Under the pieces are notes generated by a model. That model was given only the letters and a program-made list of their open reading frames with translations. It did not search any database and had not been told where the DNA came from. From the NCBI RefSeq assembly GCF_051058965.1, contig NZ_CP183924.1: 64,000 nucleotides of DNA; one strand, given 5' to 3'. This stretch comes from Corallococcus exiguus (GTDB lineage Bacteria; Myxococcota; Myxococcia; Myxococcales; Myxococcaceae). This document shows positions 9,187 to 35,525 of this stretch, one piece after another. Position 1 is the first letter of the stretch, and every line of letters begins with the position of its first letter. The position numbers and the translations under genes were made by a program.

Positions 9187-9809
9187 GTCGGGTCCTTTCG
9201 GGGAAGCGAAGGGGTCTGCTCTGGCAGCCCCAGCGCCGTGCGCACCTGGGCCGTGCTCTTGCCCAGCCAGTGCCGTCGCTGGTTCTCCTGCGTCGTGAGG
9301 CTGCGCGTCTCCATGCGGTCCACGTAGAGCGTGCCGTCCAGATGATCCAGCTCGTGTTGGATGATGCGCGCGTACCAGCCGCGCGCGGACACCGACACCG
9401 GCCGCCCGTTCTCATCCAGCGCCTCCACCCGCACGCCACGCGCCCGGGCCACCAGCGCCGCGAAGCCGTTCACGCTCAGACAGCCCTCGTGGAACTCCAT
9501 CGGCGTGGGGTCCTCCACCACGAGCTTGGGGTTGATCAGCACGTGGAAGGCCACCGGCGAGCGCTCCCGCAGCGCCAGGTCCGCGGGCGCCGCGCCAGCC
9601 TGGTACTCGGCGCGGTCCTCGATGACCACCAGCCGCAGGCCCACGCCCACCTGGGGTGCCGCGAGCCCCACGCCGGGCGCGTCCCGCATCGTGTCGCGCA
9701 TCAGCTGGATGAGCTGCCGCGTCGCTTCGCTGCCGATTTCTTCCGGGGTCAGCTCCCGCGCGCGCTGGCGCAGCACCGGTTCCCCCGCCTGGACGATCTT
9801 GAGCACCAT
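9183..9809 (-). CDS. def: peptide deformylase
   Basis: All three PDF motifs are present: GVGLAAPQ, EGCLS and HELDH. Confidence 0.9.
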   Translation of the reverse strand: MVLKIVQAGEPVLRQRARELTPEEIGSEATRQLIQLMRDTMRDAPGVGLAAPQVGVGLRLVVIEDRAEYQAGAAPADLALRERSPVAFHVLINPKLVVEDPTPMEFHEGCLSVNGFAALVARARGVRVEALDENGRPVSVSARGWYARIIQHELDHLDGTLYVDRMETRSLTTQENQRRHWLGKSTAQVRTALGLPEQTPSLPRKDPT

Positions 9810-9947
9810 GGTGGCCCCACCGTAACAACCGCTCTCCCGCCGCGCCGCAACGCCGTGGGGCCGGCATGGGCCCGGCCGCCCGGCTCCTCACGAAGCGGGC
9901 GGCCCCTGGCGTGGAGGGGTACCACTGACGGTAGGCTGTGTCGCACC

Positions 9948-25254: not shown

Positions 25255-26688
25255 ATGGCCTCGAAGATCAACGACAGCTCGCGTCCCCTCACCTCCGTCT
25301 CGCGGCTGTCCTCGCAGGACGCCCGGACGACGGATGCGAAGTCCCGGAACCGCCCTCTCGCATTCAAGGACGGCTTCGAGTCCTCCGGCAGCACGCGCCC
25401 CGCGCCCGGCCAGCTGCCGCGGCTGCCCGCGCCGCCTCCGATCCTGGGGCTGCCCGCGCCCACCACCCCGACGCCCGCGCCGACGACGCCGGTGCCTCCG
25501 GAGGCGCCCACCGAGCCGCCCGTTTCGGTCGACTCGGATCCGATGACGCACCTCGAGTACCTGGCCTCGGACGCGCTGCAGGGACGTGACAGCCCCTCCG
25601 CGGGCCTGGATGCCGCTTCCGTCTACGTGCAGGCCCACGCGGAGAAGTACGGGCTCGTGGGGCCCAACATCAACAACCCGGAGAACCCCTTCCAGCAGAA
25701 GTTCAACGTCTACTCGTGGCTGGGCGCGGAAAAGGCGGGCGAGACGGCGGGCGCGGCGCACGCAGGGCATGCCGAGCACAAACAGTTCGGCCACACGATG
25801 TTCCAGGAAGGCTTCTACCTGGACGAGAAGATGCCCAAGGACACGCTGAAGAAGCTCAACCAGCAGTACGAGCAGACGATGAAGGCGGCGGGCCAGTCGG
25901 TGGTGCCGGCGCGCGCGGGCAAGCAGCGCAGCGTGGAGGAGCTCAAGCAGGTGGCCGCCGCCACGGGCCAGGCGGTGAACACCATGGCCATGCTGCCCGG
26001 CACCGGCCCCCACAAGGACGAGGTCATCGTGGTGATGGCCCACCTGGACCACGTGGGCGTGGACCGCAAGGGCAACCCGTACAACGGCGCGGACGACAAC
26101 GCGTCCGGCAGCGCGGTGCTGATGGCGGCGGTGCCGGAGCTGGCGGAGGCCGCGAAGAACGGCAAGCTGGACCGCTCCGTGCTCTTCATCTGGACGGGCG
26201 CGGAGGAGAAGGGCCTGGTGGGCTCGCAGTACTTCGTGGACCACCCCATCCCCGGCCTGGAGCTGAAGAACATCGCCGGCGTCATCAACACGGACATGGT
26301 GGGCCGCTGGGATGATCAGCGCCTGTCCGTGGTGGACACCAACACCAAGGGCCAGCCCAACTACTTCCGTGACGTGGTGGACCAGGCGAACCAGCAGCTG
26401 GCGGATCCGTTCGACCGCATCAACCGCGACATCAACGTCTACCGCGACCGGCAGGACGGCGCGTCCTTCGGGCGCAAGGGCGAGGACGTCCTCTTCCTCT
26501 TCGAGGGCCTGTCCAACCCCGAGGGCGGCGGCGACCTCATCCCGGAGTACCACCGGCAGGATGACGACATCGACAAGATCATCGAGGACAACGGCGGCAA
26601 CAAGCCCCGCCGCGTGAAGGACCTGCTCCTCAACGTCATCAACATCGCGGCGAACCGCACGACGGAGCCGCAGCAGCAGCCGAAGTAG
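25255..26688 (+). CDS. M28-family zinc peptidase (aminopeptidase-like) with a Pro-rich N-terminal extension
   Basis: M28 metal ligand motifs HLDHVG and GADDNASG, plus NTDMVG. The first 95 aa or so are Pro/Thr-rich with no classical signal peptide. Confidence 0.8.
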   Translation: MASKINDSSRPLTSVSRLSSQDARTTDAKSRNRPLAFKDGFESSGSTRPAPGQLPRLPAPPPILGLPAPTTPTPAPTTPVPPEAPTEPPVSVDSDPMTHLEYLASDALQGRDSPSAGLDAASVYVQAHAEKYGLVGPNINNPENPFQQKFNVYSWLGAEKAGETAGAAHAGHAEHKQFGHTMFQEGFYLDEKMPKDTLKKLNQQYEQTMKAAGQSVVPARAGKQRSVEELKQVAAATGQAVNTMAMLPGTGPHKDEVIVVMAHLDHVGVDRKGNPYNGADDNASGSAVLMAAVPELAEAAKNGKLDRSVLFIWTGAEEKGLVGSQYFVDHPIPGLELKNIAGVINTDMVGRWDDQRLSVVDTNTKGQPNYFRDVVDQANQQLADPFDRINRDINVYRDRQDGASFGRKGEDVLFLFEGLSNPEGGGDLIPEYHRQDDDIDKIIEDNGGNKPRRVKDLLLNVINIAANRTTEPQQQPK

Positions 26689-27640: not shown

Positions 27641-28525
27641 CTAGGCGGCCAGCTTCTCCCCGCTGCCTTCCACGGGCCTGCCGGAGAGCGCGGCGACCTC
27701 GTGCTCGCTCAGCACGAGCTTCTCTTCAGAGCCGCTCCAGACGAACGGGATGCCCGGCTGGCGGTACAGGTTCGCGGGGATCTCCTGCGCCAGCTGCGCG
27801 TGCAGCTCCGGCAGCTTGGACCAGTGCAGACCGTGCCGCGTGTGATGCGCGGTGTGGTAGCCCAGGTTGCCCGTCATCAGGTTGTAGCCCTTGTGGAGGA
27901 TGTTGTACGAGGCCTCCGAGTGGTTGGCCGTCTCCAGGCCCACGTGGTGGAAGTACGTGGCCCAGGTCGTCACGTAGAGCGACGCCATCATGGGCAAGAG
28001 GAACACGAAGAGCGCGTTGTAGGGGTTCACCCAGAACAGGCCCGCCAGCAGCACCACCTGGAGCGCGGCCATCCACACGAACACGCGCAGCGCCTTGGGG
28101 TGATGCTTCTTCCCCACGTGGAACGCGCGCGAGTACGCGGTCAGCGCCGTGCTCAGCGAGTACTCCACCTCCCCCATCGTCGAGCCGTCATCCCGCTTCC
28201 AGCGCGACTCGTCCTGCGTCTGGTCCAGGTAGTTCTTGTGGTGGCCCAGCACGTGGTGGAGGAACCACGCCTGCGACGTCACGCCCGTCTGGAAGCCGAA
28301 GACGATCTCCAACAGGCGGTTGGGCAGCGCGTGCTTGAAGAAGGACAGGTGCTGGTGGTGGTGATTCCACGAGCAGATCCATCCCTTGGGGATGATGCCC
28401 AGCCCGAACCACAGCACCGGCACCCACCAACTGCGCGCCGTGAGGAACACCGTCAGGTCGAGCGCGAACACGCCAAGGAACATCAGGACCGGGATGCGAT
28501 CTTCAGGGTGCCGGAACAGGGTCAT
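27641..28525 (-). CDS. membrane fatty-acid desaturase / hydroxylase-family protein (three His boxes)
   Basis: His boxes HHHQH, HHVLGHH and HTAHHTRH, with TM segments. The start is MTLFRHPEDRIPVLMF. The stop codon TAG (27641-27643) lies inside the IS target duplication. Confidence 0.75.
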   Translation of the reverse strand: MTLFRHPEDRIPVLMFLGVFALDLTVFLTARSWWVPVLWFGLGIIPKGWICSWNHHHQHLSFFKHALPNRLLEIVFGFQTGVTSQAWFLHHVLGHHKNYLDQTQDESRWKRDDGSTMGEVEYSLSTALTAYSRAFHVGKKHHPKALRVFVWMAALQVVLLAGLFWVNPYNALFVFLLPMMASLYVTTWATYFHHVGLETANHSEASYNILHKGYNLMTGNLGYHTAHHTRHGLHWSKLPELHAQLAQEIPANLYRQPGIPFVWSGSEEKLVLSEHEVAALSGRPVEGSGEKLAA

Positions 28526-28681
28526 GGGCTTCCGAGACAAGTGGGCCGGGGAAAAAATGCCGCTTTTCCAACTGTAGGCTGCATTCCCCACCCCGAACAG
28601 CCCGCCCTTGTCCGCCTGCACGTTCCACACTGGCGGTAAACCACGTAGTCACGTTGAACTTGTATTTCCACATTTCCAAGA

Positions 28682-28702
28682 ATCACAGTCCTGCTTTGTG
28701 AT
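28682..28702. promoter_or_regulatory. imperfect palindrome ATCACAG-N7-TTGTGAT in an AT-richer divergent promoter region
   Basis: It sits in the 218-bp region between the divergent desaturase-like and HO-like genes. Six of seven positions form an inverted repeat. Confidence 0.25.
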
Positions 28703-28743
28703 AAACGCCGACCCAGCCCTTTTGGACCACCCTGGAGGCGGCA

Positions 28744-29406
28744 ATGCGGAACCAGACCATCGAGGCGGCACTGGCGAAGAATCCCCACCGTGAACAGCTG
28801 ATCAAGCACCGGTTCTTCGAGGTGGTGGACGAGAAGGCCTTCAGCCGCGACCAGGCGGAGCTGGTGCTGGGTCAGTGGTGGCACCCCCTGCACTATTTCC
28901 CCACCTTCCTGGGCAAGCTGATCGCCGTCTGCCCGCAGATGGAGATGAAGACGGCGGTGACGCACATCCTCAACCAGGAGGTGGGCGAGGGAGACCCGGC
29001 GCGCGCGCACGAGCGCTTCTTCATCCAGACGATGACGGACGCGGGCTTCACCCAGGCGGGCGTGTCCGAGGCGGACATGACGCCCGCGACGCGCCGGCTC
29101 ATCGACGGGTACCAGCGCTCCACGGACAGCCACCTCACCGGCCTGGGCTTCCTCTACGGCACGGAGGTGGCGGACCTCACCATGGTGGCCAAGCTGGGCA
29201 AGCTGGTGCGCCGCACCACGGGCCTCAAGTCCCTGCCCTGGGTGGACATCCACGTGAAGCAGGAGCCGGACCACGTGGAGACGGCCGGCCACACGATGGG
29301 GCTCGCGTACACGGACGAGGAGCTGGCCACCATCACCCGCGGCGCCGAGGAGATGTGGCAGCTGTGGGTGGGTTTCTTCGAGGAGCTGCGCAACCGCGTC
29401 GTCTGA
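28744..29406 (+). CDS. haem-oxygenase-like / TenA-PqqC-fold (iron-containing redox enzyme family) protein
   Basis: 220 aa, all-helical by composition. WWHPLHYFPTFL and EVGEG...HERFF segments are typical of the HO-like fold. The assignment is by fold family only. Confidence 0.55.
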   Translation: MRNQTIEAALAKNPHREQLIKHRFFEVVDEKAFSRDQAELVLGQWWHPLHYFPTFLGKLIAVCPQMEMKTAVTHILNQEVGEGDPARAHERFFIQTMTDAGFTQAGVSEADMTPATRRLIDGYQRSTDSHLTGLGFLYGTEVADLTMVAKLGKLVRRTTGLKSLPWVDIHVKQEPDHVETAGHTMGLAYTDEELATITRGAEEMWQLWVGFFEELRNRVV

Positions 29407-29488
29407 GCGGCCGCCTGCGTCAAGCGCCAACCCCTTGGAATCCGTGCGTTTTCACACGGAACACTGGCGAATCTCTCCAGGTAGGGTA

Positions 29489-29515
29489 GTCACTCCCGCG
29501 TCACGGGAGTGTCAC
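29489..29515. promoter_or_regulatory. near-perfect palindrome / hairpin between the HO-like gene and the DUF47-pitA operon
   Basis: gtcactcccg cgtca cgggagtg(t)cac. It could be a terminator for the upstream gene or an operator for the phosphate-transport operon. Confidence 0.25.
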
Positions 29516-29584
29516 CCCCTAGAGGCGCCACCACCCTCCCGCGGCTGACAGCTCCTGTCCCTCCAGGCGCCGAGGGAGATCCCC

Positions 29585-30211
29585 ATGCTCGAAAAGCTGA
29601 TGCCGAAGTCGGACGAGTTCTTCGACGACTTCGACGCGCAATGCGCCAGAACTGTCGAGGGAGCAAAGCTCCTACACGAGCTCCTGAGCGACTTCCGGGA
29701 CGTGCCCACGCGCGTCCAGGCCCTCAAGGACGTGGAGCACAAGGGCGACGAGGTCACCCACACGGCCTTCAACCGCCTCCACCAGCAGTTCATCACCCCG
29801 TTCGACCGGGGGCAGATCCACACGCTGCTGTCGCGCATCGACGACGTGCTGGACCTGACCAACGCGGCGGCGGCGCGCCTGCTGTACTACGAGATCGAAT
29901 CCACCCGGGCGGATGCCACGGAGCTGGCGCGGCTGCTGGTGCTCTCCACGCTGAAGGTGCAGGAGGTCGTCGCGGCGCTGCGGCTCATCAAGAAGCCGGA
30001 GCAGATCCTCGCGGGCTGCAAGGAGATCAAGCACCTGGAGTCCCAGGCGGACGAGGCGCTGCGCGCGGGCATGGGCCGGCTGTTCAAGAGCGGCGTGGAT
30101 ACCCTGACCATCATCAAGTGGAAGGAGATCTACGACCTCATCGAGACGGCCACGGACAAGTGCCAGGGCGTGGCCAACGTCATCGAGGGCGTCGTGCTGG
30201 AGCACAGCTGA
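29585..30211 (+). CDS. DUF47 (PhoU-like, Pit accessory) protein
   Basis: A helical protein of 208 aa, placed 1 nt upstream of pitA, which is the conserved gene order. It starts MLEKLMPKSDEFFDDFDAQ. Confidence 0.8.
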   Translation: MLEKLMPKSDEFFDDFDAQCARTVEGAKLLHELLSDFRDVPTRVQALKDVEHKGDEVTHTAFNRLHQQFITPFDRGQIHTLLSRIDDVLDLTNAAAARLLYYEIESTRADATELARLLVLSTLKVQEVVAALRLIKKPEQILAGCKEIKHLESQADEALRAGMGRLFKSGVDTLTIIKWKEIYDLIETATDKCQGVANVIEGVVLEHS

Positions 30212-30212
30212 G

Positions 30213-31238
30213 ATGCTGCTCGCAGCGGTCGTCGCCATCGTCATCGTCGCGCTCATCTTCGACTTCATCAACGGCTTCCACGACGCGGCGAACTCCATCG
30301 CCACCGTGGTGTCCACGCGCGTGCTGTCGCCGAACCTGGCTGTCGCCTGGGCCGCGTTCTTCAACTTCATCGCGGCCTTCGCGGGCGGCGTGCACGTGGC
30401 CAACACCATGGGCAAGGGCATCATCAACTTCGAGATGCTCCGCGCCGCCGGCCCCGCCGCGGTGCTGATGGTCATCTTCTCGTCGCTGATGGGCGCCATC
30501 GTCTGGAACCTGCTCACCTGGTGGTGGGGGCTGCCCTCGTCCTCCTCGCACGCGCTGGCGGGCGGGATGATTGGCGCCACCCTGCCCGTGCTGGGCTTCG
30601 AGGGCCTGGTGGGCAGCGGCATCGCGCGCATCGCGGCCTTCATCGTGCTGTCGCCGCTCATCGGCATGACGCTGGGCATCGGGATGATGCTGGCCAGCAC
30701 CTGGGCGGTGCACCGTCAGACGCCGCTGCGCGTGGACACCTGGTTCCGCCGGCTGCAGCTGGTGTCGTCCGCCATCTTCTCCTTCAGCCACGGCACCAAC
30801 GACGCGCAGAAGGTCATGGGCATCATCGCGGTGGTGCTCTTCGGCACCATCTGGCGCGACCGCCCGTTCCACATCGACTGGTGGATGATCATCTCCTGCC
30901 ACGCCGCCATCGCGATGGGCACGTTCTTCGGCGGCTGGCGCATCATCCGCACCATGGGCCACAGCCTCACGAAGCTGGCGCCCATTGGCGGCTTCAGCGC
31001 GGAGACGGGCGGCGGCGTCACCATCATCGCGCTGGCGGAGCTGGGCATCCCCGTCTCCACCACGCACACCATCACCGGCGCCATCGTCGGCGTGGGGTCC
31101 ACGCGCGGCTGGCGGGCCGTGAAGTGGGGCACCGCCGGCCGCATCATCTGGGCGTGGGTGTTCACCATCCCCGCGGCCGCGCTGGTGTCCGTCATCGTCT
31201 ACGGAATCACGCTGGCCGTGGTTCGGATGGTGGGCTGA
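30213..31238 (+). CDS. pitA: inorganic phosphate transporter, PiT family
   Basis: The PHO4 signature GFHDAANSIAT appears once and the second repeat (GTNDAQK) is also present. There are about 10 TM helices. Confidence 0.85.
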   Translation: MLLAAVVAIVIVALIFDFINGFHDAANSIATVVSTRVLSPNLAVAWAAFFNFIAAFAGGVHVANTMGKGIINFEMLRAAGPAAVLMVIFSSLMGAIVWNLLTWWWGLPSSSSHALAGGMIGATLPVLGFEGLVGSGIARIAAFIVLSPLIGMTLGIGMMLASTWAVHRQTPLRVDTWFRRLQLVSSAIFSFSHGTNDAQKVMGIIAVVLFGTIWRDRPFHIDWWMIISCHAAIAMGTFFGGWRIIRTMGHSLTKLAPIGGFSAETGGGVTIIALAELGIPVSTTHTITGAIVGVGSTRGWRAVKWGTAGRIIWAWVFTIPAAALVSVIVYGITLAVVRMVG

Positions 31239-31292: not shown

Positions 31293-33080
31293 CTACTGCA
31301 CGACCCGGACGTTGAGGGACGACGACGGTCCACCCACGGCCGGCGGCACCCAGGGCACCACCTTCTTGTTCTGCCACTGGACCAGCTTCAGCGACGGGTC
31401 CTCCAGCGGCACATCGAAGGTGTAGGAGATGCGCGTGGGTCCTTCCGCGTCCGCCTCCTCGATGCGCACCATCATGCCCTTCATGTCGAACTCGTCGCCC
31501 TTGTGCACCGGGTGGCGCGCGGCGCGGTGGATGCGCTCCTCCACGGAGTCCAGGAAGTGGCCACCCTTGGTGAGCTCCAGCTCCACCGAGTTGGGGCCGG
31601 TGCGCGTCACCTTCTGCTCATAGAGCGAATAGGACAGCACCCACCAGGCCTTCGGCAGCGGATTGCCCGAGGACCACCAGCGCACGGAGCCGTAGATGCC
31701 GATGATGCCGTTGGGGGCGTTGAGCACCACCACGCGCTGATTGGAGAGCTTCGTCTGGTCAAACGCCTCCTCGTAGCGCGCCTGCACGCGCCCCATGAGC
31801 GCGTCCGCCTGGGAGTACTGCTCCATGGTCTGCCACCAGAGGTACGGCGAGCCCACGACGTGGATGAGGGCCATCACCGCCGCGCCGGCCAGCACCGCGC
31901 CCGCGCGCAACGTCTTCGCCCGCCCCTTCCACGCGTGGCGCAGCACCACGGCCAGTCCCACCGCCATGCCCAGGCTGGGCACGATGAGCGTGCGCGAGCC
32001 GGCGAAGGCGGAGTTGGACATCCACGTGGCCACGAACGCGCCCGTCAGCATCCAGCCCACCGTGCGGCGCTCCGCGGCCTCCAGCCGGGGCCACACGCCC
32101 CACACCAGCAGCGCGAACAGCGTGAAACCCACCGCGCCCAGGAGGGTGAAGAGGGGCACCAGGGACTGGTCGAAGATGAAGTCCGGAGGCGCGTTCAGCG
32201 TCAGGCCCGCGATGGCGGCCGGGACGCGCCCGAGCATCGCCTGGAACCACGCCACGGGCGTGCCCAGGGCGTCCAGGTACATGTCCGAGCCGCCCGCGCC
32301 GTAGCCCATGGCCCGGTACGCCGCGAAGTAGATGGCCATCAGCACGCCGAAGGGGATGAGCCCCTTGAGCTTGTCCTTCGCCTGCCCCGGGCCGGAGAAG
32401 GCCTCGTAGGCCAGCACGTACGGGCTGAGGATGACCATCGTCTCGCCGCACAGGAGCGCCAGCGCGAAGGACACCAGCGCGCCCACCAGGGTGCTCGTGC
32501 GCTTCTCCTCCCGCCACTTCACGTGGAGGAAGATGCCGAGGACGCCGAAGAGCAGCGACATCACCACGCTGCGGTAGGACAGCCAGCCCAGCACCGCCGC
32601 GTGCGAGCCCCAGATGGCGAAGAGGAACATCGCCACGCCCGCCACCGCCGTGGGCAGCACGCGCTTGAGCAGCACGCCCGCCAACACCACCAGGCCCACG
32701 TACCAGAGCAACGAGTGGAACTGGTAGGCCACCGCCACGCGGTTGTAGAGCACGTGGTCCAGTCCGTAGAGCAGGCTGCCCAGGGGCCGGAAGAACGCGA
32801 CGCGCACGGTGGGCTCCACCCACCACGGGAAGACGCCCACCTGCGCCAGGTGCAGCGTGTGCTCCGGGATGCCCGTGGCCGTGCGGTACACGTCCAGGGG
32901 CGTGTTCCCCAGCGGCGCGGGCGGCGGAATGTTGTCCCAGACGCCCAGCCAGATGAAGTCATCCGGCATGAATCCCGAGCGCAACGCGAGCGCGCCCAGC
33001 GCCACCGCGAACACGATGGAAATCCAGAAGTAACGCTTAAACGGCCAACCCGGGGCGGCTGGCGAAGGAGAAGTATCCAT
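31293..33080 (-). CDS. polytopic integral membrane protein (unknown function; possibly a membrane glycosyltransferase-like protein)
   Basis: 595 aa with at least 12 hydrophobic helices in the first 430 aa and a C-terminal soluble domain. GC3 is high. Confidence 0.55.
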   Translation of the reverse strand: MDTSPSPAAPGWPFKRYFWISIVFAVALGALALRSGFMPDDFIWLGVWDNIPPPAPLGNTPLDVYRTATGIPEHTLHLAQVGVFPWWVEPTVRVAFFRPLGSLLYGLDHVLYNRVAVAYQFHSLLWYVGLVVLAGVLLKRVLPTAVAGVAMFLFAIWGSHAAVLGWLSYRSVVMSLLFGVLGIFLHVKWREEKRTSTLVGALVSFALALLCGETMVILSPYVLAYEAFSGPGQAKDKLKGLIPFGVLMAIYFAAYRAMGYGAGGSDMYLDALGTPVAWFQAMLGRVPAAIAGLTLNAPPDFIFDQSLVPLFTLLGAVGFTLFALLVWGVWPRLEAAERRTVGWMLTGAFVATWMSNSAFAGSRTLIVPSLGMAVGLAVVLRHAWKGRAKTLRAGAVLAGAAVMALIHVVGSPYLWWQTMEQYSQADALMGRVQARYEEAFDQTKLSNQRVVVLNAPNGIIGIYGSVRWWSSGNPLPKAWWVLSYSLYEQKVTRTGPNSVELELTKGGHFLDSVEERIHRAARHPVHKGDEFDMKGMMVRIEEADAEGPTRISYTFDVPLEDPSLKLVQWQNKKVVPWVPPAVGGPSSSLNVRVVQ

Positions 33081-33301: not shown

Positions 33302-34717
33302 ATGCGCATCGCCATCATCGCCACGTACACCCATCCGACCCGGCTGCGAATCAAGGAACCCTCCATCATGCAGTCCTCCGTGCCGGAGCTCATCGCGGGC
33401 CTGTGCCCGGAGCACGCGGAGGTGGAGATCTTCAACGAGAAGGAGGCGGAGCTGCCGTTGGACCGGCACTGGGACCTCGTCTTCTTCTCGTACCTGCACT
33501 CGTACTACGAGCACACCAAGGTCCTCTCCACCCTCTTCCGTCAGCGCGGCATGACGACGGTGGCGGGAGGCCGGCACGCGGGCCACTTCCCCGACGACGC
33601 GGCGAAGTACTTCGACGCGGTCATCACCGGGGAGCCGGAGTCCAACGTGCCCGCGCTCATCGCGGACTTCGAGAAGGGCGAGCTGAAGCCCCGCTACAGC
33701 CTGCCGTCACAGGGCGCCGCCGCCATCCGGCCGTACCGCTACGAGCTCATCGACTTCAAGCACAACAAGGTGCGCCTGCCGGGCATCGAGGCGTCCCGCG
33801 GCTGCCCCTTCACGTGCAACTTCTGCGTGCTCACCGGCCACGAGCGCTACCGCTTCCGTCCCATCCCGGAGGTCATCGACGAAATCCAGACGCGCATGCG
33901 CTGGAACCCGAACTTCCTGGGGCTGATGGGGGACGCGTTCGTCTTCCTGGACAACAACCTGGGCGGCTCGCCCAAGTACCTGCGCGCGCTGTGTGAAGCG
34001 CTCATCCCGTTGAAGAAGACGTGGGGCTGCGCGCTCACCTTCAACGTGCTGAAGGACGACTCGCTGGTGAAGCTGATGGCGAAGGCGGGCTGCCGCTACG
34101 TCTACACCGGCCTGGAGTCGCTCAACCCGGAGTCGCTCAAGGCGATGAACAAGGGCCAGAACAAGCTGTCGGAGGTGGACGCCGTCATCCGCCGCGTCTT
34201 CTCCGCCGGCATCCTGCTGTCCTTCGGGCTCATCGTCGGCTCGGACGGCGACACCAACGAGTACCTGCACCGGCTGCCGGACTACCTGGCGGACCTGAAG
34301 TACTTCTCCGTCACGTTCCTGGGCATCGTGTGCCCGTATCCGGAGACGCCCTTCTTCCGCGAGCTCAAGGCCGAGGACCGGCTGCTGCCCGGCACCACCA
34401 GCCGCGACTACGACGGCTACACGCTGTGCCACCGGCCCAAGCAGATGCACGCGTCGGAGGTGGTGGAGCACTTCCAGCGGCTGTGCCACACGCTGGGCAG
34501 CCTGCCCAACATCGCGCGGCACTACGCGTCCAAGCTGATGATGAGCGACCTGCCCCGCTACAAGCAGACCATCCTCTTCTCCGGGCCGGAGATCGTCAGC
34601 ATCCGCAACCCGGTGAAGAACAAGGAGCGCCGCTACATCGCGGGACTGGACGCCATCGAGGCGTGGGACGCGGAGCGGATGCCCGCGCTGGGCCTCACGC
34701 CGCAGGTCCTGACCTGA
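33302..34717 (+). CDS. B12-binding radical SAM protein (class B rSAM)
   Basis: An N-terminal cobalamin-binding-like Rossmann segment, then the rSAM cluster motif CPFTCNFC (CxxxCxxC). Confidence 0.85.
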   Translation: MRIAIIATYTHPTRLRIKEPSIMQSSVPELIAGLCPEHAEVEIFNEKEAELPLDRHWDLVFFSYLHSYYEHTKVLSTLFRQRGMTTVAGGRHAGHFPDDAAKYFDAVITGEPESNVPALIADFEKGELKPRYSLPSQGAAAIRPYRYELIDFKHNKVRLPGIEASRGCPFTCNFCVLTGHERYRFRPIPEVIDEIQTRMRWNPNFLGLMGDAFVFLDNNLGGSPKYLRALCEALIPLKKTWGCALTFNVLKDDSLVKLMAKAGCRYVYTGLESLNPESLKAMNKGQNKLSEVDAVIRRVFSAGILLSFGLIVGSDGDTNEYLHRLPDYLADLKYFSVTFLGIVCPYPETPFFRELKAEDRLLPGTTSRDYDGYTLCHRPKQMHASEVVEHFQRLCHTLGSLPNIARHYASKLMMSDLPRYKQTILFSGPEIVSIRNPVKNKERRYIAGLDAIEAWDAERMPALGLTPQVLT

Positions 34718-35525
34718 TCCGGGACGGCAGGCGCACGTCCCACGCCAGCCCCAGGACCTGGAGCGCTCGGATGAAGAGCCAACCCGGGTCCCACTGCCAC
34801 CACACCCAACCGTGCCGCGCGGACGCGGGGAAGGCGTGGTGGTTGTTGTGCCAGCCCTCGCCCAGCGCGAGCACGCTCACCCACCACACGTTGCGGCTGT
34901 GGTCGCGCGTGTCGTGGACGCGCTTGCCGAACGCCGCGTGGCACACGGAGTTCACCGCGTAGGTGCTCTGCATCCAGCACACCACGGGCAGGAAGAAGTA
35001 CGCGGGCACCGTGCGCCAGCCGAACGTCAGCCCCACGAAGAGCACCCCCAGCACCTGCGGCGCGATGCGGTAGCGCAAGAGCCAGTGGTAGTAGCCGTCG
35101 TCCGCCATGTCGCGGCACCAGGTGCGCCAGCCGTCCTCTTCCGTGGAGGACTCGTTGAGGATCCACCCCATGTGCGCGTACCAGAAGCCGCGCAGCGGCG
35201 AGTGCACGTCCCCGTCCACGTCCGCCTTCGCGTGGTGCAGCCGGTGGTTCGCGGCCCACAGGAGCGGACTGCCCTGCGCGGTGAGCATGGCCACCGACAC
35301 CAGCGCGTACTCCACCCAGCGGGGGCACGCGAAGGCGCGGTGGCACAGGAGCCGGTGCAGCCCCACCGTCGTGCCCAGACCAATGGACACGTACACGGCC
35401 AGCGCCACCGGCAGCGCGTACGGCGGCCAGGGCAGGAAGAACGCCAGCGCGGCCAGCCCGTGGACCACGAGCATGTAGATGACGATGACGGGACTGAGCT
35501 GGAAGCGGAGCGGCGCGGTGATCAT
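34695..35525 (-). CDS. acyl-CoA (stearoyl-CoA-type) fatty-acid desaturase
   Basis: His boxes HRLLCH, HRLHH and HNNHHAFP, with four TM helices. Its 3' end overlaps the rSAM gene by 23 nt in convergent orientation. Confidence 0.85.
   Translation of the reverse strand: MITAPLRFQLSPVIVIYMLVVHGLAALAFFLPWPPYALPVALAVYVSIGLGTTVGLHRLLCHRAFACPRWVEYALVSVAMLTAQGSPLLWAANHRLHHAKADVDGDVHSPLRGFWYAHMGWILNESSTEEDGWRTWCRDMADDGYYHWLLRYRIAPQVLGVLFVGLTFGWRTVPAYFFLPVVCWMQSTYAVNSVCHAAFGKRVHDTRDHSRNVWWVSVLALGEGWHNNHHAFPASARHGWVWWQWDPGWLFIRALQVLGLAWDVRLPSRIRSGPAA

Follow-up and report, generated by a model that had tools for sequence, protein, structure and literature searches.

A 64,000-nucleotide stretch of the Corallococcus exiguus genome (contig NZ_CP183924.1; hereafter the window) carries two divergent genes, one encoding a protein of the FA_desaturase family and the other a haem-oxygenase-like di-iron oxidase (HDO). 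On balance, these appear to be two intact, independently evolving genes that have become neighbours by chance in one genus; the HDO would then be an orphan of a clade associated with non-ribosomal peptide synthetases (NRPSs). Their pairing probably arose by accident in the local gene order and does not reflect a two-enzyme lipid pathway. Such a pathway had been proposed in an earlier reading of this DNA (the sequence-only reading). Its description of a divergent pair with a 218-bp spacer is confirmed by the coordinates of the open reading frames (ORFs; Table 1), and both products belong, as it stated, to O2-activating di-iron enzyme classes.

Conservation of the pairing was examined in 80 HDO loci, which were collected from one genome per species (GTDB) using clade-specific peptide patterns; the desaturase was sought in these loci by tblastn and with a hidden Markov model (HMM) of the desaturase family. 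The desaturase adjoins the HDO gene in each of the eight Corallococcus species loci that have sufficient flanking sequence, and this is the only genus with the adjacency. Neither tblastn nor the HMM found the desaturase at the Citreicoccus locus (L023), the Pyxidicoccus locus (L024) or 69 further HDO loci. In Citreicoccus inhibens, the HDO of which is 86% identical, the order HDO-PhoU_div-PHO4 is kept and the upstream genes encode a flavin monooxygenase and an amidohydrolase. In Pyxidicoccus caerfyrddinensis (HDO 81% identical), the arrangement is HDO-MFS-NRPS at an unrelated genomic place. The co-occurrence and adjacency across genomes that characterise a conserved two-gene module are not observed; the sequence-only reading had itself named a lack of co-conservation in related genomes as decisive against a lipid or small-molecule pathway.

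The two genes differ in their histories. Homologues of the desaturase form an unbroken series from 92% to ~70-71% identity through Corallococcus, Cystobacter, Archangium, Myxococcus, Pyxidicoccus and Hyalangium, which indicates vertical inheritance. In contrast, HDO identity falls from 80% directly to 59% (Acidobacteriota). The neighbour-joining tree has the form (Pyxidicoccus,(Citreicoccus,Corallococcus)). Since Pyxidicoccus is basal in this tree, the NRPS-linked state is likely to be ancestral and the juxtaposition with the desaturase to be the most recent step. In the lineage of Citreicoccus and Corallococcus, the HDO gene would have been separated from any NRPS and placed 5' of PhoU_div/PHO4 while still under purifying selection; the desaturase would have become its upstream neighbour only in Corallococcus.

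Selection also differs between the genes. In pairwise comparisons with eight Corallococcus species, the ratio of nonsynonymous to synonymous substitution rates (dN/dS) is 0.07-0.23 for the HDO; this is similar to the phosphate-transporter genes and below the desaturase (0.21-0.48). Together with the intact ligands described below, the low ratio indicates that the HDO is maintained by selection, and the same two observations rule out a decaying pseudogene. An identical 220-aa protein is encoded in several Corallococcus assemblies at NCBI.

The desaturase is a clear family member. It scores 100.8 bits against Pfam FA_desaturase (PF00487; gathering cutoff 29.7, E 1.4e-28) and contains the three His boxes (8 His) of the family, HHHQH (residues 55-59), HHVLGHH (90-96) and HTAHH (224-228), all conserved in 21 aligned sequences. 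Hydrophobic blocks at residues ~9-45 and ~143-190 (Kyte-Doolittle windows >=1.5) are consistent with four transmembrane helices, as a hydropathy estimate only. The protein thus resembles the PF00487 superfamily of desaturases and alkane hydroxylases in its HX3H, HX3HH and HX2HH boxes and its two hydrophobic helix pairs; it belongs to a different subfamily from the Delta9-type desaturase encoded 6 kb away. No NCBIfam family matched it, a single-sequence search of the PDB gave no meaningful match, and a profile search likewise found no solved relative. The minus-strand gene encodes a predicted four-transmembrane, three-His-box membrane di-iron desaturase or hydroxylase, vertically inherited in Myxococcaceae and Archangiaceae. 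To judge from its family, the enzyme would most likely desaturate or hydroxylate a lipid acyl chain with O2 and an external electron donor.

Relatives of the desaturase are found in varied surroundings. In Myxococcus sp. SDU36 (L094 247-6846) and Pyxidicoccus parkwayensis (L096 379-6867), a homologue of 72-73% identity closes a cluster of the order lipoxygenase-lipoxygenase(PLAT)-P450-desaturase, in which the P450 stop codon overlaps the desaturase start. This cluster is likely to be an oxylipin operon. The Cystobacter fuscus homologue lies amid polysaccharide genes, a few kb from an M28 peptidase gene, and that of Archangium violaceum has yet another context. No HDO was found near these four homologues. 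The company of lipoxygenase and P450 genes supports a fatty-acyl substrate for the desaturase family; it is uninformative on the HDO.

The HDO scores 96.9 bits against Pfam Haem_oxygenas_2 (PF14518; cutoff 28.9, E 1.6e-27). Structure prediction, which the sequence-only reading had called for, returns a confident haem-oxygenase-like helical bundle (AlphaFold2 model built on 41 homologues; pLDDT 92, pTM 0.90). The order of the modelled helices fits the aux1/aux2/core1/aux3/core2/core3/aux4 scheme of HDOs (PMC13133933), which points to a seven-helix bundle of the haem-oxygenase type. A Foldseek search of the PDB with this model recovers CADD, PolF, BesC, UndA, TenA-like proteins and HrmI at TM scores of 0.7-0.8 and 12-20% identity; for CADD, PolF, BesC and UndA the probability is 1.00. 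Searching the PDB with a sequence profile of the clade gives BesC (7TWA, E 6e-9), the CADD-like 4-aminobenzoate (pABA) synthase 9PJ4 (E 1.3e-7), FlcD (3BJD) and CADD. The profile did not recover UndA at E<=10, and a single-sequence search of the PDB gave nothing meaningful.

Six residues, E79, H89, E141, H170, E174 and H177, show no variation among 41 clade sequences and align with the E, H, E and HxxxExxH of BesC. They form a predicted 3-His/3-carboxylate site, to which core helix 1 contributes E79 and H89, core helix 2 E141, and core helix 3 the H170-x3-E174-x2-H177 motif. Their spacing (+10, +62, +29, +4, +3) mirrors the published ligand sets of SznF (E215/H225/E281/H311/D315/H318) and RohS (E124/H134/E190/H218/D222/H225) (PMC13133933), and the six-ligand set is complete. 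The plus-strand gene encodes a soluble HDO with a full predicted 3-His/3-carboxylate site.

N-oxygenating HDOs of the SznF and RohS type carry a seventh ligand, a Glu on auxiliary helix 2 located ~26 residues before the first core Glu, which makes O2 activation independent of substrate (PMC13133933, PMC7848743). The clade alignment has no conserved Glu or Asp in residues 35-62 of the HDO; in the model this segment is an uninterrupted helix, and position 53 is an invariant Pro. By this published criterion, the HDO can be grouped with the substrate-triggered type that activates C-H or C-C bonds (UndA, BesC, AetD). In such enzymes the carboxylate of the substrate completes the site.

BesC (4-chloro-allylglycine synthase, 7TWA) is among the closest characterised enzymes; it is a substrate-triggered HDO, and its substrate is a free amino acid. 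BesC is the best profile match in the PDB (over residues 17-189). Its six ligand positions can all be aligned, those of the H-x3-E-x2-H on core helix 3 among them, the Foldseek TM score is ~0.78, and the seventh Glu is missing in both proteins (PMC13133933). However, identity is only 18-20%, there are no Bes-pathway genes beside the window HDO, and the motifs WWHPLHYFP and YGTEVADL are peculiar to the clade. CADD-type 4-aminobenzoate synthases (1RCW, 8VA9, 9PJ4) include the top Foldseek match (8VA9; TM 0.78-0.80) and agree in size and helix order as well as in the 9PJ4 profile match. They differ in having 14-16% identity, and the clade elsewhere is found with NRPSs and not with folate metabolism; the score against TIGR04305 (CADD-family pABA synthase) is 43 bits, far below the curated cutoff of 200. 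PolF (azetidine amino-acid synthase) and UndA (fatty-acid decarboxylase) share the fold (TM 0.7-0.79), and both use a 3-His/3-carboxylate di-iron site for the activation of aliphatic C-H bonds; here identity is 12-17%, and PolF is matched by the profile only in a C-terminal stretch (E 0.2).

Two clade-specific invariant motifs, QWWHPLHYFP (residues 44-53) and YGTEVADL (138-145), have no counterpart in BesC. H47 and H50, which lie in the first motif on auxiliary helix 2, could be additional metal or substrate ligands.

The clade comprises ~60 representative clusters (50% identity) at E<=1e-30 among 1.84 billion representative proteins; its members are ~50% identical across phyla and share these motifs. 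In Acidobacteriota, Eisenbacteria, Xanthomonadales, Kofleriaceae and Pyxidicoccus, the gene nearly always lies beside NRPS genes. Outside Corallococcus and Citreicoccus, an NRPS gene is located within 500 bp of the HDO at 49 of 70 loci and within 5 kb at 63; of the six loci that lack one, five are short contigs. The linkage was confirmed with Pfam in Pyxidicoccus and Dyella and is also seen in gene tables of Acidobacteriota. All-vs-all clustering of neighbouring genes, using a reduced set, found only NRPS fragments in common across clades.

The NRPSs themselves are varied. Those of Thermoanaerobaculia are giant (>6000 aa), their first module is a fatty-acyl-AMP ligase, and an Abhydrolase_2 gene lies next to them; in Dyella, Rudaea, Paraburkholderia and Kofleriaceae the enzymes have C-A-T-C-A-T-TE architecture. 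Methyltransferase, SDR and sulfotransferase genes are also present in the clusters of Dyella, Kofleriaceae and Paraburkholderia, while those of Candidatus Angelobacter contain genes for an MFS_3 exporter, a zinc alcohol dehydrogenase (Zn-ADH), a CmlA-like beta-hydroxylase and a B12-radical-SAM protein. The HDO clade marks a series of apparently uncharacterised NRPS clusters from several phyla (L024-L093; for example L034 9215-16708, L078 7189-19603 and L061 5614-18356).

In view of the near-constant NRPS neighbourhood of the clade and the substrate-triggered type of the enzyme, an amino-acid-like substrate is most likely for the HDO. The enzyme would most likely bind an amino-acid-like carboxylate at the di-iron site and oxidise the side chain, yielding a non-proteinogenic product. 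The A domains of the linked NRPSs do not narrow this further. By an approximate residue mapping in GrsA numbering, the first A domain is proline-like ("DVQ...") in Dyella, Kofleriaceae, Pyxidicoccus and Sulfotelmatobacter, and basic-residue-like ("DAE/DTE...") in Thermoanaerobaculia; with this mapping no signature is common to all HDO-linked NRPSs and no HDO substrate can be deduced. The DVQ type is also present in NRPSs of Archangium and Myxococcus, neither of which is among the HDO-bearing genomes returned.

Amino-acid chemistry is the speciality of HDOs (PMC13185094), a superfamily in which many clusters are still unassigned (PMC7848743). No characterised member was found in the clade, and literature searches on PF14518, on HDOs in myxobacteria and on Myxococcus desaturase and lipoxygenase found nothing specific; both proteins of the window are new members of known families. 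A bolder proposal, which should be regarded as tentative, is that the clade catalyses an undescribed HDO reaction on an amino-acid or acyl substrate that is later built into non-ribosomal peptides, and that in Corallococcus the enzyme has been freed from the NRPS for a stand-alone role, possibly with the desaturase. The unusual amino-acid chemistry known from HDOs is expanding rapidly (PMC13185094, PMC7848743). A compact, conserved clade with consistent NRPS linkage is a reasonable target for enzyme discovery, and the Corallococcus protein, which is small, soluble, stand-alone and from a cultivable host, would be convenient for expression and screening.

In the window, no NRPS-sized ORF was found over the full 64 kb, so the HDO has none within a few kb. 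Judged on sequence, the Corallococcus and Citreicoccus HDOs belong inside the clade (50-59% identity), and they are orphans by context. Alternatively, the enzyme might act in trans, providing a modified amino acid for an NRPS whose gene lies elsewhere in the Corallococcus genome. The strong NRPS linkage across the clade and the purifying selection on the HDO are consistent with this, as is the abundance of NRPSs in Corallococcus; these include three-module enzymes of ~3,440 aa which are 58-59% identical to the Pyxidicoccus HDO-linked NRPS. However, these are generic matches. The only clear orthologue of the Pyxidicoccus enzyme (96%) is in another strain, Pyxidicoccus sp. MSG2, and the Corallococcus matches at 59% have counterparts in Myxococcus and Archangium, which are absent from the HDO-bearing genomes returned. 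Given also that the window is without an NRPS and that the linked NRPSs share no common A domain, supply in trans is considered unlikely.

The spacer between the desaturase and HDO genes is AT-rich, as had been reported: its GC content is 56.4%, against a mean of 70.1% for the window. A value this low is reached by only 0.2% of 218-bp segments, and the lowest of all (55.0%) falls in this spacer. Low GC at a divergent promoter region is ordinary in a genome of 70% GC.

The sequence-only reading also noted an operator-like palindrome in the spacer, ATCACAG-N7-TTGTGAT. The sequence is present; its standing as an operator is not upheld. The 7-mers are complementary at six of seven positions and the perfect arms are only 6 bp long. 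Two perfect 6-bp inverted repeats (spacer 0-12) occur in the 218 bp against a mean of 0.61 in shuffled sequences (P(>=2) = 0.14). Among nine Corallococcus species, A, G and T all occur at base 4 of the left arm and bases 3 and 6 vary in single species, whereas the right arm, TTGTGATAAAC, is invariant; there are no compensating changes in the left arm. Since an operator is expected to be conserved symmetrically, the unequal arms mean that the palindrome is not a credible operator. It is best taken as a chance feature which overlaps the presumed HDO promoter or 5'-leader.

Two conserved blocks can be distinguished in the spacer, a desaturase-proximal one around TTTTCCAACTGTAGG and an HDO-proximal one. 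The latter is nearly invariant in the nine Corallococcus species, contains a direct repeat, ATTTCCA-N1-ATTTCCA (28664-28678), and is recognisable 5' of the HDO gene in Citreicoccus and Pyxidicoccus despite the different upstream gene. In C. sp. CA053C and C. llansteffanensis, a GC-rich insertion of ~120 bp parts the two blocks (L019 and L021, ~9790-9910; alignment A2 columns 98-223). The AT-rich spacer would therefore hold two separable promoter-proximal blocks, one per gene; in the simplest reading there would be two promoters arranged back to back, and the HDO gene would have one of its own. The motif TTGAAC-N18-AAGAAT is a possible -35/-10 pair. Scans of 28400-29700 for sigma-70 promoters (9 of 12 matches) and terminators found no sites, and Rfam gave only a sub-threshold chance match on 28450-29650. 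On the minus strand, the conserved TGGAACGTGCAGGC was considered by eye as a sigma-54-like site and rejected because the GG-to-GC spacing is one off.

These observations bear on the proposal that the Corallococcus genes form a two-enzyme lipid-modifying pathway under a shared, operator-controlled divergent promoter, for example with a UndA-like HDO acting on an acyl substrate made or modified by the desaturase. The adjacency in all eight Corallococcus loci fits such a pathway, both enzymes depend on O2 and a supply of reducing equivalents, the Foldseek matches include UndA, and NRPSs that start with a lipid often neighbour members of the clade. In addition, a distant FA_desaturase paralogue (23% identity) is located 5 kb upstream of the HDO in Pyxidicoccus caerfyrddinensis (L024 3800-9914); an acyl-CoA dehydrogenase gene and a DUF5916 gene lie between them.

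However, the pairing is confined to one genus and the four desaturase homologues checked elsewhere have no HDO neighbour. The sequence profile finds BesC and CADD-like enzymes and not UndA, and the dN/dS regimes of the two genes differ. Common regulation by a shared operator is not supported, given the ~120-bp insertion between the blocks, the movement of the upstream block with the HDO, and a palindrome that is at chance level and not symmetrically conserved. The lack of co-conservation outweighs the points in favour, and the pathway is accordingly given a low probability; the two-enzyme lipid reading does not hold and is not worth pursuing in that form.

Several points weigh against a chance pairing with an NRPS-clade orphan. 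Every Corallococcus species examined keeps the adjacency, and a genus-specific functional link could still lie behind it; the Pyxidicoccus paralogue is a further point. Many of the neighbouring NRPSs start with a fatty-acyl-AMP ligase module, which leaves room for a UndA-like fatty-acyl substrate. The HDO ligand geometry was judged by alignment and helix assignment, and the HDO substrate, its metal content and all transcription starts are predictions.

On its 3' side the HDO gene is followed on the same strand by PhoU_div and PHO4, and this order is kept in Corallococcus and Citreicoccus. The 178-bp spacer between HDO and PhoU_div (29407-29584) has 85% column identity, and large parts are kept in Citreicoccus; this suggests that the transporter genes may have their own control region. 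The spacer contains a perfect hairpin with an 8-bp stem, CACTCCCG-CGTCA-CGGGAGTG (29491-29511), which matches no Rfam family. A functional tie and co-transcription of the HDO with these phosphate-transport genes, for which the conserved order and strand, the similar dN/dS and the lack of a terminator-like site between HDO and PhoU_div in the terminator scan might be cited, is very improbable given the conserved spacer and the separate control region that it suggests, the lack of PhoU_div/PHO4 neighbours in any other clade member and the fact that HDO chemistry is not known to concern phosphate.

Table 1. Features of the desaturase-HDO locus and its surroundings (positions in the window)
Feature	Position	Strand	Remarks
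FA_desaturase-family gene, 294 aa	27641..28525	-	Pfam FA_desaturase; ATG start, MTLFRH...
HDO gene (haem-oxygenase-like di-iron oxidase), 220 aa	28744..29406	+	Pfam PF14518
Divergent intergenic spacer, 218 bp	28526..28743	.	Between desaturase and HDO genes
HDO-proximal conserved block	28654..28706	+	TTGAAC-N18-AAGAAT (putative -35/-10), repeat, then TTGTGATAAAC
Reported palindrome ATCACAG-N7-TTGTGAT	28682..28702	.	Perfect only as ATCACA-N9-TGTGAT
PhoU_div (DUF47) and PHO4 phosphate-transporter pair, 3' of HDO	29585..31238	+	Pfam; context, outside the pair
IS5-family insertion sequence, directly 3' of the desaturase stop codon	26762..27640	+	DUF4096 and DDE_Tnp_1_2 ORFs (Pfam)
M28 peptidase, upstream context	25255..26688		
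595-aa membrane protein	31293-33080	-	No Pfam match
Radical-SAM gene	33302-34717	+	
Second desaturase, Delta9 type	34695-35525	-	HRLLCH...HNNHH

The HDO start codon (ATG) is preceded by a GGAGG ribosome-binding site a few bases 5'. A longer desaturase ORF starting from a GTG at 28630 was considered and rejected; the extra stretch contains frame-breaking indels between species and is non-coding.

The IS5-family element is strain-specific and is missing from seven near-identical Corallococcus assemblies (L001-L007). Compared with assembly L003, it is an 879-bp insertion at the CTAG that holds the desaturase stop codon, and its ends are inverted (GGRCGTGTCCGCAAAT). Its two ORFs (DUF4096 and DDE transposase) are probably joined by a frameshift.

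Further downstream, the radical-SAM gene and the Delta9-type desaturase gene overlap convergently by ~20 bp, an order kept in the Corallococcus loci L001-L008, for which gene tables were returned. The 595-aa membrane protein is fast-evolving among Corallococcus (63-94% amino acid identity, dN/dS up to 0.9), against 94-98% for its neighbours. Genes for a DUF5818 protein and an M28 peptidase are found a few kb from the HDO both in Corallococcus (L001 858-6829) and in a Thermoanaerobaculia metagenome-assembled genome (L011 9050-11760); this co-occurrence in the two lineages may be a coincidence or the trace of a transferred block.

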